In this document: in pieces, positions 47,603 through 48,147 of the stretch
How the letters are laid out: each line of letters starts with the position of its first letter
Position numbering within the stretch: position 1 is the stretch's first letter
Source of the DNA: Escherichia coli
GTDB taxonomy: Bacteria; Pseudomonadota; Gammaproteobacteria; Enterobacterales; Enterobacteriaceae
Direction: 5' to 3' (one strand)
DNA: 64,000 nucleotides
Assembly: GCF_002854065.1 (NCBI RefSeq)
Contig: NZ_CP024147.1
Position numbers and translations under genes: made by a program
Notes under the pieces: model-generated
Databases searched by the model: none
What the model was told of the DNA's origin: nothing
The model's input: only the letters and a program-made list of their open reading frames with translations

Positions 47603-47637
47603 ATAAAAAAGGCGACATGCTAATGTGTCGCCTTTTT
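47603..47637. terminator. Bidirectional Rho-independent terminator after acrD (also usable by ypfM on the opposite strand)
   Basis: A6 run, stem ggcgacat / tgtgtcgcc, T5 run. Confidence 0.6.
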
Positions 47638-47707
47638 CAACTTTTTTCAACTTTCCGATTAAGAACCTGCTCAGCGGGTTCTTGCTGTTTGTACTTTGTC
47701 TCAGGAA

Positions 47708-47767
47708 TTACTTACGAAGCATAACTTCGATAAAGTCTTTCCAGTTCCCCAGTTCACGTTCAATCAT
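47708..47767 (-). CDS. ypfM: 19-aa small protein YpfM
   Basis: Minus-strand mini-ORF translating to MIERELGNWKDFIEVMLRK, matching the recalled K-12 small protein; below the ORF-track size cutoff. Confidence 0.55.
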   Translation of the reverse strand: MIERELGNWKDFIEVMLRK

Positions 47768-48147
47768 AACAACCTCTCTTATAATTATGGGTATTCTACG
47801 GAAACAATATACCGTGGTGAAGCTAATTTACTCGATTGCTGCGATGACTACCTCCGGGGGACAAACCTTATGTAAATACTATGGTCCTGCGGTGATGATT
47901 TGTATGTGATACACAGCAACATTTCGAGATATTCATACGGCATCTAATACTGATTTAATTCTGGTTAAAATACAGACAGATAACAAGATGAATATTCTTA
48001 ATGTTTACGTTAAAAATGTTTAATATTATTTAATAGTTGTTAATTTGAATACTTCGATAATGTTATATTTCCTGATAATCATTTGCAGGCAAAATGTTTT
48101 CACTCTTAAATGAGTATTTATTCTCATAAATCGAAAAAGGATTCATT

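Follow-up and report, generated by a model that had tools for sequence, protein, structure and literature searches.

What does the AT-rich DNA between acrD and yffB of Escherichia coli hold, and does any of it go beyond an ordinary gene junction? The window (the whole 64,000-nucleotide stretch analysed here) carries acrD at 44486-47599 and yffB at 48148-48504, both on the plus strand, and an earlier note made from the letters of this DNA had drawn attention to the spacer between them (47603-48147), describing a bidirectional terminator, a second hairpin, a minus-strand ORF of 19 codons taken to be ypfM and a base composition suited to hidden small RNAs or nucleoid-protein-bound DNA. The RefSeq annotation bears out the naming of acrD, ypfM and yffB, and all of the features described lie where the note had placed them. 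The interval is very probably a compact, annotated E. coli gene junction made up of a shared terminator, the ypfM unit and AT-rich promoter DNA. As such it is real, already known and ordinary except for the extra conservation around ypfM. Almost every complete E. coli genome (5425 of 5426) matches the 751-bp region, where the RefSeq label is “ypfM: protein YpfM,” and YffB matches the Pfam family ArsC (E 2.6e-22). Published E. coli coordinates were converted to the window via NC_000913.3 with an offset of 1980 between the old and new genome versions, which was checked against plasmid end-points. What was found amounts to a gene already annotated and a spacer already charted, and by itself changes nothing; the identification of a 19-codon gene from raw sequence is nonetheless a clean positive control. 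The features on the acrD side of the spacer and upstream of ypfM are as follows.

47604-47639, both strands: bidirectional intrinsic terminator of acrD (plus) and ypfM (minus), with the stem GGCGAC/GTCGCC between an A-run and a T-run (scan, folding, covariation)
47633-47652, no strand: 10-bp tandem duplication TTTTTCAACT in the T-tail of the acrD terminator and the ypfM 3'UTR (direct repeat D3; rare allele)
47660-47684, plus strand: second hairpin, Escherichia-specific, within the ypfM 3'UTR (folding, comparison)
47708-47767, minus strand: ypfM coding sequence, 19 codons and stop (RefSeq ypfM, b4606; mass spectrometry; comparative data)
47768-47786, minus strand: ypfM 5'UTR with the Shine-Dalgarno sequence GAGAGG (47778-47773) and an A-R-N run of the AAUAAUAAGAGA type (near-invariance)
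47793-47821, minus strand: proximal sigma70 promoter of ypfM, TTCACC-17-TAGAAT (scan, SELEX, conservation, ChIP-seq)
47834-47845, minus strand: ATCA(C/G)AGCAAT block upstream of the proximal -35 (moderate conservation, 0.6-0.8)
47878-47931, minus strand: distal module, TTTCAaAATaTTGC-N6-TCACAT (47931-47904), a fixed 21-nt gap and CATAGT (47883-47878), a candidate activator-dependent second ypfM promoter

The ORF translates as MIERELGNWKDFIEVMLRK followed by a stop codon, and with the RefSeq ypfM features in three E. coli records, including NC_000913.3, this establishes it as ypfM. The earlier note had staked its reading on translation of the mini-ORF, and translated it is: intact YpfM with a formyl-Met N-terminus was identified at 100% coverage in top-down mass spectrometry and again in DIA and PRM, and the intact peptide is present at a measurable copy number. 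Of 80 related loci from about 40 genera of the Enterobacterales, 75 contain the gene, which clearly evolves as protein-coding sequence. Third codon positions vary roughly three times more than first or second ones in these 75 loci (entropy at positions 1/2/3 of 4.1/4.8/13.3), and codon differences are 183 synonymous against 101 non-synonymous, the latter clustering at codons 4 and 15. Nine residues are invariant, and the stop keeps its position while TAA, TAG and TGA interchange.

Hemm et al. are said to have detected YpfM via an SPA tag in 2008. A 2025 review lists the peptide as “of unknown function”; few very small E. coli proteins that are both soluble and abundant still lack an assigned function, and YpfM is among these. 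It is a soluble peptide of zero net charge, and we infer that it forms a single amphipathic α-helix, with a hydrophobic face predicted to comprise I2, L6, W9, F12, I13, M16 and L17 and with the variable residues 4 and 15 on the polar face. The hydrophobic moment is 0.55, a value reached by 2.3% of shuffled peptides. YpfM may work by docking, whether with itself or with a partner protein.

How is this short gene expressed? A promoter scan returned TTCACC-17-TAGAAT as the sole promoter-like match, and identical hexamers were given for ypfM in an RpoD SELEX study (Shimada, 2014). Together with the ribosome-binding site these hexamers are conserved out to Yersinia and Dickeya, and the hexamers in Erwinia also. 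A sigma70 ChIP-seq peak labeled ypfM converts to about 47768-47784 of the window, and anaerobic sigma70 occupancy at ypfM is raised 2.5-fold. The proximal transcription start is placed here, near 47786, from the position of the -10 hexamer; the Shine-Dalgarno sequence sits 5 nt before the AUG, and the 5'UTR, nearly invariant (0.8-0.99) among 74 distinct upstream sequences, contains four A-R-N triplets. The gene forms an autonomous one-gene unit on the minus strand; transcription from its sigma70 promoter is predicted to give about 190 nt of mRNA, in which a short leader and a canonical ribosome-binding site precede the 19 codons.

In Salmonella the transcript has been seen directly. STnc250, a discrete, stable RNA of about 220 nt, was described as an sRNA candidate, was reclassified in the same paper as the ypfM mRNA, and was enriched 4-fold in Hfq co-immunoprecipitation. 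It is thus in this published Salmonella mRNA that the suggestion of small transcripts from the spacer has found its substance. The Salmonella band of about 220 nt agrees better with a start some 90-105 nt upstream of the AUG than with the proximal promoter. The corresponding Rfam model (RF01409) matches 47599-47728 on the minus strand over its full length (1-94) with 35.9 bits and an E value of 1.5e-5 to 5e-5, a score below the Rfam gathering cut-off of 42 and with a 64-nt insertion in the alignment; the shortfall arises because the E. coli 3'UTR carries this Escherichia-specific insertion relative to a Salmonella-based model. Synteny, together with a coding end and a terminator common to both, makes the homology clear. 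The ypfM mRNA of E. coli would be expected to associate with Hfq, probably through its A-R-N-rich leader and the U-tail of its terminator. No ypfM entry was found in the supplements of Venturini (2020), of a Mg-starvation preprint, of a MarA/SoxS paper or of the 2016 RIL-seq paper.

At the 3' end of the unit lies the terminator. The claim of a bidirectional terminator was upheld by a scan of both strands, which places a single hairpin of 14 pairs at 47606-47637 on the plus strand and 47639-47604 on the minus strand, flanked by its A-run and T-run; four terminator-like sites were returned by the scan against 0.9 expected from shuffles. Folded in context, the hairpin has an energy of -30 to -33 kcal/mol, with z about -3.6 to -3.8. 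In the comparison of 24 genera, 93.6% of alignment cells are paired, compared with 49-60% in slid controls, six pairs are changed on both sides, the covariation score was reached in none of 500 shuffles, and the A-run and T-run are conserved in 22-23 of the 24. The stem is thus maintained by compensatory change, and this predicted intrinsic terminator would end transcription from both sides, that of acrD on the plus strand and that of ypfM on the minus strand. The tandem duplication TTTTTCAACT beside it is absent from K-12 and carried by only 6-8 of 5305 E. coli records. The second hairpin is likewise present as the note had described; it falls inside the 64-nt insertion, occurs with its pairing kept in E. 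albertii and is missing from other genera. It is more stable on the plus strand (-14.5 kcal/mol, z -4.1) than on the minus strand (-9.6 kcal/mol, z -2.3), and so may act as a backup stem after the acrD terminator.

Two aspects of the conservation around ypfM appear to be new observations, and the first is the distal module, which has the geometry of an activator-type promoter. Its distance from the ypfM start codon, on the upstream side, is approximately 105-165 bp. Its TCACA, at 47905-47909 in the window, recurs in 65 of the 74 upstream sequences, and within these 65, which were chosen for carrying it, the A, T, A and T of the CATAGT hexamer are invariant or nearly so; the spacing between the two elements is 21 nt in 55 of 62 sequences. 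Could ypfM have a second, regulated promoter here, built from TTGC-N6-TCACA, the 21-nt gap and CATAGT, with a start near 47871 and an mRNA of about 270 nt? This is possible, if on balance doubtful. The predicted site would be centered at -41.5 from such a start, a geometry that activators of the CRP and FNR families use, and the near-invariant hexamer bases and spacing among the TCACA-selected sequences fit a functional unit. The module also keeps its distance to the ypfM ATG (136-152 nt) and not to yffB (207-697 nt), the Salmonella band would be better explained by the distal start (predicted transcript about 230 nt) than by the proximal one (about 146 nt), and the anaerobic rise in sigma70 occupancy points the same way. 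However, the upstream half-site TTGC fits neither CRP (GTGA) nor FNR (TTGA), and the consensus bases matched (13/22 for CRP, 8/10 for FNR) are reached by shuffles in 68% and 48% of trials, respectively. Neither an FNR ChIP peak nor a predicted FNR site is given there (Myers, 2013), and the sigma70 ChIP peak is centered on the proximal promoter. Yersinia, Erwinia and Dickeya moreover lack the module, Buttiauxella and Cedecea have it in altered form, and on the plus strand the same bases read TACTAT, which is likewise -10-like.

Several other assignments were tried and set aside. Consensus matches to Fur, CRP, FNR, Zur and ArgR sites in the spacer were no better than those in local-composition shuffles, FNR being further disfavored by the lack of both ChIP peak and predicted site (Myers, 2013). 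The distal block was also considered as a sigma54, sigma32, sigmaE or IHF site and as a marbox, and each was dropped as a poor fit by eye.

The second apparently new observation is that the synonymous sites of ypfM are close to frozen. Synonymous identity is 0.80 where 0.54 is expected after matching by codon type, and rises to 0.93 in codons 2-10; in the same genomes the values are 0.55 for yffB, 0.51 for dapE and about 0.6 for ypfN. Individual codons illustrate the effect, with CGT conserved at 0.94 (0.30 expected) and GGG at 0.95 (0.29 expected). Only 10 of 457 windows of 19 codons in the neighboring genes reach the ypfM level, and one of these, at the 3' end of yffB, comprises its final 19 codons and lies directly ahead of the dapE start. 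The species compared are phylogenetically related, and these counts are hence not independent. Conservation so far above that predicted from the protein implies that some role at the level of RNA or DNA is missing from the account.

One candidate for such a role is a dual function of the ypfM transcript, in which a conserved interaction surface would be formed by the leader together with the first ten codons. That surface could be a site for Hfq-dependent base-pairing, could act as a sponge, or could be targeted by an sRNA or by an RNA-binding protein, for example CsrA. The Hfq enrichment of STnc250, the synonymous identities and the near-invariant leader with its A-R-N triplets all speak for this reading, which we nevertheless regard as unlikely. 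Frozen as the leader and codons 2-10 are, none of 21 E. coli sRNAs screened against the ypfM initiation region pairs with it beyond chance (the best, AzuR, has z -1.97 and ranks 23 of 58; Spot 42 has z -0.68). The 3'UTR, the usual place for an sRNA seed beside the terminator, is unconserved, and no conserved secondary structure was found, the putative long ypfM leader showing five invariant pairs and zero covariation. In so short an ORF, strong selection acting on the initiation region might account for part of the signal; codons 2-19 of dapE reach 0.70, and the relatedness of the species weighs here too.

Other sources of the frozen sites fared no better. An antisense ORF was rejected: of the antisense frames, the one able to constrain ypfM third positions stays open in no more than 56 of the 74 sequences, and the wobble positions of the one that is open throughout coincide with those of ypfM. 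A further idea, that Spot 42 pairs with codons 2-6, was dropped once the spf sequence had been verified and the duplex proved no better than chance. Unconnected with the frozen sites, a 13-nt direct repeat (47724-47736 and 48051-48063), which might have allowed the ypfM mRNA to pair with a long yffB leader, has an expectation of about 0.5 by chance and is unconserved in Citrobacter.

Taken together, the two observations could be accommodated if an RNA-level interaction fixes the ypfM leader and first ten codons across the Enterobacterales, the transcript being dual-function or tightly controlled post-transcriptionally, with an activator-dependent second promoter at the distal module. We consider this composite speculative and rather improbable; if true, YpfM synthesis would be wired into an undescribed global regulatory circuit. 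The frozen synonymous sites and the upstream module at fixed spacing in any case provide handles on the control of YpfM or on a role of its RNA.

The remainder of the spacer leads toward yffB, with the following features.

47933-47960, plus strand: published predicted yffB promoter, TTCATA-16-TTTAAT (Shimada, 2014; sequence present in the window)
47940-48140, no strand: extreme AT-rich tract, divergent promoter and leader region of yffB-dapE-ypfN (GC, ChIP, weak conservation)
48061-48069, plus strand: extended -10-like sequence TGTTATATT, candidate main yffB promoter (recurrence in several genera)
48134-48150, plus strand: yffB Shine-Dalgarno sequence (AAAAAGGAT) and start codon (conservation)

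The GC figures agree with the strong AT-richness claimed for the spacer, and for 47940-48140 in particular: GC is 0.336 over 47603-48147 and 0.239 over the tract, with a minimum of 0.18 per 100 bp at 47980, and the tract, at 0.18-0.26, holds the lowest 100-bp and 200-bp values of the window (mean 0.523, sd 0.065). That the spacer is bound by nucleoid proteins also finds support in published data. H-NS ChIP-chip regions convert to about 47118-47858 and 48049-48839 and an IHF region to 47914-48761 (Myers, 2013), all overlapping the spacer, and the ypfM<>yffB spacer bears an “HNS” flag (Shimada, 2014). In addition, yffB is O2-responsive only in a Δhns ΔstpA strain. By these ChIP regions, which overlap the tract, H-NS and IHF occupy it, and H-NS dampens expression from it. 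A search for the H-NS high-affinity motif TCGATAAATT with up to two mismatches gave three occurrences in the region and 70 in the window, no notable enrichment.

Within the tract the main yffB promoter may be TGTTATATT, from which transcription would begin near 48076 and give a 5'UTR of about 72 nt. Of 69 distinct sequences, about 28, belonging to several genera, have this 9-mer or a variant of the TGnTAnnnT type at 74-118 nt ahead of the yffB ATG. The published TTCATA-16-TTTAAT, which would instead place the start near 47967, is conserved in Escherichia, partly in Citrobacter and nowhere else; yffB of Salmonella has a -97 leader, and CAAAAGGATTCA..ATG at the yffB start is conserved at 0.7-0.99. 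The promoter assignment is weak because no sigma70 ChIP peak is given in the tract under anaerobic growth.

Might the tract instead harbor an sRNA gene of its own that annotation has missed? Genes for sRNAs do occur in AT-rich spacers, and occupancy by IHF and H-NS marks regulatory DNA, but this is very improbable. Between 47690 and 48400 neither strand has a terminator-like site, an Rfam search up to E≤10 gave nothing beyond obvious noise, and conservation stops at Escherichia and Citrobacter, the spacer itself ranging from 202 to 839 nt among genera. By its poor conservation and its want of a terminator or Rfam match, the tract is promoter and nucleoid-protein DNA for yffB-dapE-ypfN and contains no RNA gene. 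Least tenable of all is the view that the 19 codons form an ORF by chance or encode a regulatory leader peptide rather than a functional protein, which has in its favor the extreme shortness of the ORF and the first cataloging of its mRNA as an sRNA candidate, but is already refuted by conservation of the protein across a bacterial order, with third-position variation and a fixed stop, and by detection of the intact peptide, and which as a leader would lack a target since ypfM is followed on its strand by the terminator and then the convergent acrD.

How does the junction compare with known systems? The distal module resembles class II CRP- or FNR-dependent promoters in placing TCACA at -38 to -34 from the predicted start and in its fixed gap to a -10-like hexamer without a -35 hexamer, a geometry that holds only if the start lies 7 nt after CATAGT; it departs from them in its TTGC half-site, in lacking a consensus match above chance and in having no FNR ChIP signal. 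Like ypfM, the pairs AzuC/AzuCR, SgrT/SgrS and SpfP/Spot 42 have a short, Hfq-associated transcript bounded by a promoter and a terminator of its own, a non-transmembrane peptide of very small size and nucleotide conservation beyond coding need; ypfM differs in having no known base-pairing target or seed, none having been found with the 21 sRNAs screened. AzuC is cationic, whereas the net charge of YpfM is zero. The tract recalls the H-NS-silenced, AT-rich divergent promoters of E. coli in its GC of about 0.2, its H-NS and IHF ChIP occupancy, its poor conservation and the unmasking of flanking yffB expression in Δhns ΔstpA; it differs as a core-genome spacer of about 200 bp rather than a horizontally acquired island, and in that the adjoining ypfM stays actively transcribed, as its sigma70 peak indicates. 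The STnc250 model (RF01409) takes in the final codons of ypfM together with its 3'UTR and terminator. Closest is K-12 itself, from which the strain of the window is set apart by the rare 10-bp duplication beside the terminator, and whose YpfM (b4606) has the identical protein sequence and is encoded, likewise between acrD and yffB, on the other strand.

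The acrD-yffB spacer (47603-48147) is an already known locus, comprising the ypfM gene (mRNA STnc250), a bidirectional terminator that acrD and ypfM share, and a divergent promoter spacer bound by H-NS. A 751-bp query spanning the interval matched 5425 of 5426 complete E. coli genomes, with acrD, "ypfM: protein YpfM" and yffB annotated beneath the match. The same ypfM annotation is found in a W3110 record, in strain 100416 (100% identical) and in NC_000913.3, where the gene is b4606 (2590807-2590866) and is named "uncharacterized protein YpfM". These matching annotations identify the window as E. 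coli chromosome, the spacer as known and its mini-gene as already annotated. The following features frame the analysis:

44486-47599, + strand: acrD-side flanking ORF, encoding a 1037-aa protein
48148-48504, + strand: yffB-side flanking ORF, ArsC-family, 118 aa, with an M20 peptidase next
47878-47931, ypfM strand: distal conserved module, TTTCAaAATaTTGC-N6-TCACAT, gap, CATAGT or CATATT

The earlier note had listed a 19-codon ORF, two hairpins and strong AT-richness in this spacer. All of these were found in the sequence, its interpretation of the spacer is supported, and the checks it proposed (translation, discrete transcripts and H-NS ChIP) have already been run by others, positive throughout.

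Translation of the minus-strand ORF at 47708-47767 gives MIERELGNWKDFIEVMLRK*. Conservation was examined in 80 loci around yffB relatives, with a single genome per species, and 75 of these have a ypfM-like ORF that lies upstream of yffB and runs in the opposite direction. Entropy summed over codon positions 1, 2 and 3 is 4.1, 4.8 and 13.3, respectively (57 distinct coding sequences). Nine residues are invariant (M1, E5, W9, K10, F12, I13, M16, L17 and R18), amino acid variation lies mostly at residues 4 and 15, and the stop is fixed in position with its codon alternating between TAA, TAG and TGA. ypfM is an autonomous unit: the Yersinia nurmii copy still adjoins an AcrD-like gene, two genes intervening before yffB, and the Dickeya copy still adjoins yffB in a locus lacking acrD. 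Two copies have altered ends: the usual stop is lost in Lelliottia nimipressuralis (locus L032, 2552-2611; ..MLRN DL..), extending the product, and the Y. nurmii copy (locus L073, 1398-1457) has one additional residue ahead of the stop. The ypfM mRNA also contains GAACUGG twice (- strand, 47755-47749 and 47747-47741, within 47741-47755), 8 nt apart and in two different codon phases, and a pair of GGA motifs beyond the start.

Expression of the gene is documented. In Salmonella the locus was recovered as STnc250 with 4-fold enrichment by Hfq co-immunoprecipitation (6 versus 24 cDNAs); Northern blotting showed a band near 220 nt, and the transcript was concluded to be a small growth-phase-dependent mRNA with the ypfM ORF (Sittka et al., 2008). 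A 2025 proteomics study detected YpfM intact, its sequence fully (100%) covered and its initiator Met formylated, quantified it by PRM, and noted an earlier detection by Schmidt et al.

The earlier note had also suggested that the AT-rich DNA might hide a small RNA or protein-bound regulatory DNA. GC content is 0.336 across the interval and 0.239 across 47940-48140. It bottoms out at 0.18 per 100 bp, and nowhere else in the 64 kb window (mean 0.523, sd 0.065) does it fall as low; four other low-GC runs (25203-25361, 26250-26414, 27492-27647 and 57909-58087, at 0.24-0.27 per 100 bp) are each less extreme. The tract is conserved only within Escherichia and Citrobacter, the ypfM-yffB spacer of other genera measuring 202 to 839 nt at GC 0.30-0.48, and neither a terminator scan nor an Rfam search of it gave a match. 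Supplementary ChIP-chip data place H-NS at 2588247-2588977 and 2589168-2589958 and IHF at 2589033-2589880 (Myers et al., 2013). These older coordinates were converted via NC_000913.3 plus a version offset of 1980, verified on plasmid end-points, and correspond to 47118-47858 and 48049-48839 (H-NS) and 47914-48761 (IHF). The poor conservation, the lack of terminator or Rfam matches and the ChIP occupancy therefore lead us to reject a hidden RNA gene: the AT-rich tract is H-NS- and IHF-occupied promoter and leader DNA.

The yffB promoter has been given as TTCATA-16-TTTAAT, in a spacer flagged "HNS" (Shimada et al., 2014), and the O2 response of yffB is seen only in a delta-hns delta-stpA strain, with both an FNR peak and a predicted FNR site absent from the spacer (Myers et al., 2013). 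Near yffB, conservation is limited to the ribosome-binding site and an extended -10-like motif, TGTTATATT (48061-48069), which lies 74-118 nt ahead of the yffB ATG in about 28 of 69 sequences. The anaerobic sigma70 list has no peak in the tract, the next mapping to ~48466 inside the yffB 3' end, so during anaerobic growth the upstream promoter of yffB is probably either weak or silenced. Other reported inputs are a MarA ChIP peak within ypfM<>yffB, a 2.6-fold increase of yffB in a delta-fur strain and, in Salmonella, a 97-nt yffB leader that the sRNA SdsR represses. Inside ypfM (47724-47736) and again just ahead of the -10-like motif (48051-48063) stands a 13-nt direct repeat, ACTTCGATAA(A/T)GT, each copy resembling the motif bound by H-NS with high affinity, TCGATAAATT. 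Chance alone would give about 0.5 repeats of this kind, and Citrobacter does not keep this one.

At the opposite end of the spacer, the bidirectional terminator claimed previously is a single hairpin scored on both strands (+ 47606-47637 and - 47639-47604), with 14 pairs flanked by an A-run and a T-run; the scan found four terminator-like sites against 0.9 expected. Its stem is kept across related loci, with six pairs altered on both sides and 93.6% of cells paired versus 49-60% when the 3' partners are slid. The second hairpin is likewise present (47660-47684), is Escherichia-specific, and is more stable as + strand RNA (-14.5 versus -9.6 kcal/mol). It accounts for a 64-nt insertion, and for this reason the Rfam STnc250 score (35.9 bits) is under the family cut-off of 42. 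From stop to terminator, the ypfM 3'UTR lacks conservation between genera. In place of the Escherichia hairpin, another palindrome lies between terminator and stop in Enterobacter, Leclercia, Lelliottia and Silvania, GTGTGAtta..TCACAC (loci L021, L025, L028, L020 and L045; alignment A2, columns about 140-165). Adjoining the terminator at 47633-47652 is a 10-bp tandem duplication (TTTTTCAACT x2), absent from K-12 and carried by 6-8 of 5305 E. coli records, which extends the acrD T-tail and the A-rich stretch ahead of the ypfM terminator.

The ypfM<>yffB spacer is an RpoD-holoenzyme SELEX site with the ypfM promoter given as TTCACC-17-TAGAAT (Shimada et al., 2014), and a sigma70 ChIP-seq peak listed under ypfM, with a signal of 321 in aerobic and 816 in anaerobic growth (Myers et al., 2013), converts to ~47768-47784. 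Across 74 aligned distinct upstream sequences the leader AAUAAUAAGAGAGGU.GUUAUG, the -10 (TAGAAT or TATAAT) and the -35 (TTCAC) are near-invariant, as far as Yersinia, Erwinia and Dickeya. On the + strand, 47780-47785 is a perfect TATAAT, the complement of the leader (TATTAT in other genera), which could be a divergent overlapping promoter or a mere by-product of the A/U-rich leader.

The distal module and a freezing of synonymous sites in ypfM are two points beyond the existing annotation. TCACA occupies the aligned position in 65 of the 74 sequences. In this subset, 55 of 62 have a 21-nt gap, and the hexamer shows little or no variation at its A, T, A and T. The module lies 136-152 nt from the ypfM ATG and 207-697 nt from yffB. 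What could it do? A second, activator-dependent ypfM promoter is possible rather than probable, with CATAGT as -10, a predicted start near 47871 and the factor left unnamed. The site centre would then be at -41.5, the class II geometry of CRP/FNR-type activation, and the Salmonella band of ~220 nt fits this start (predicted ~230 nt) better than the proximal one (predicted ~146 nt). However, the upstream half-site reads TTGC, matches to known-factor consensuses never exceed shuffles, FNR ChIP is negative at the spacer (Myers et al., 2013) and the sigma70 peak is centered on the proximal promoter.

At conserved residues, codons are identical to those of E. coli at 0.80 in ypfM (0.93 for codons 2-10, 0.68 for codons 11-19), compared with 0.55 in yffB, 0.51 in dapE and about 0.6 in ypfN in the same 64 genomes, and with a codon-type-matched expectation of 0.54 drawn from yffB and dapE. 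The most strongly fixed codons include non-optimal ones (GGG 0.95 versus 0.29, CTT 0.80 versus 0.41). Leader and codons 2-10 form a near-frozen stretch at 47738-47786. An overlapping DNA signal, such as the perfect + strand TATAAT, is one candidate source; others are unusually strong selection on initiation of a tiny ORF, and contact of the initiation region with a protein or another RNA. A search for conserved RNA structure as the source found none, and none of 21 E. coli sRNAs screened paired with the initiation region above chance. An antisense ORF was excluded. Of 457 windows of 19 codons taken from yffB and dapE, only 10 score 0.80 or more; these include the final 19 codons of yffB (0.81) and the highest-scoring window near the yffB 3' end, directly upstream of the dapE start. 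The published sigma70 ChIP-seq peak at ~48466 is 42 nt ahead of the dapE ATG (48508); together with the 0.81 identity it may reflect an internal promoter, or signals for dapE initiation. A strict promoter scan gave no consensus match there. That the ypfM RNA is dual-function or specially regulated, with a second activator-dependent promoter, is doubtful but would be of moderate interest if true.

The function of YpfM is still called unknown in the 2025 literature. A leader peptide is rejected, only a terminator and the convergent acrD lying downstream on its strand. The hydrophobic moment (0.55 at 100 degrees per residue) is reached by only 2.3% of shuffles, and on a helical wheel I2, L6, W9, F12, I13, M16 and L17 share one face, with the variable positions 4 and 15 adjacent on the polar face. 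YpfM may thus form one amphipathic helix and act by binding a protein partner or by oligomerising. It has four acidic and four basic residues. Its composition differs from that of the hydrophobic type I toxins.
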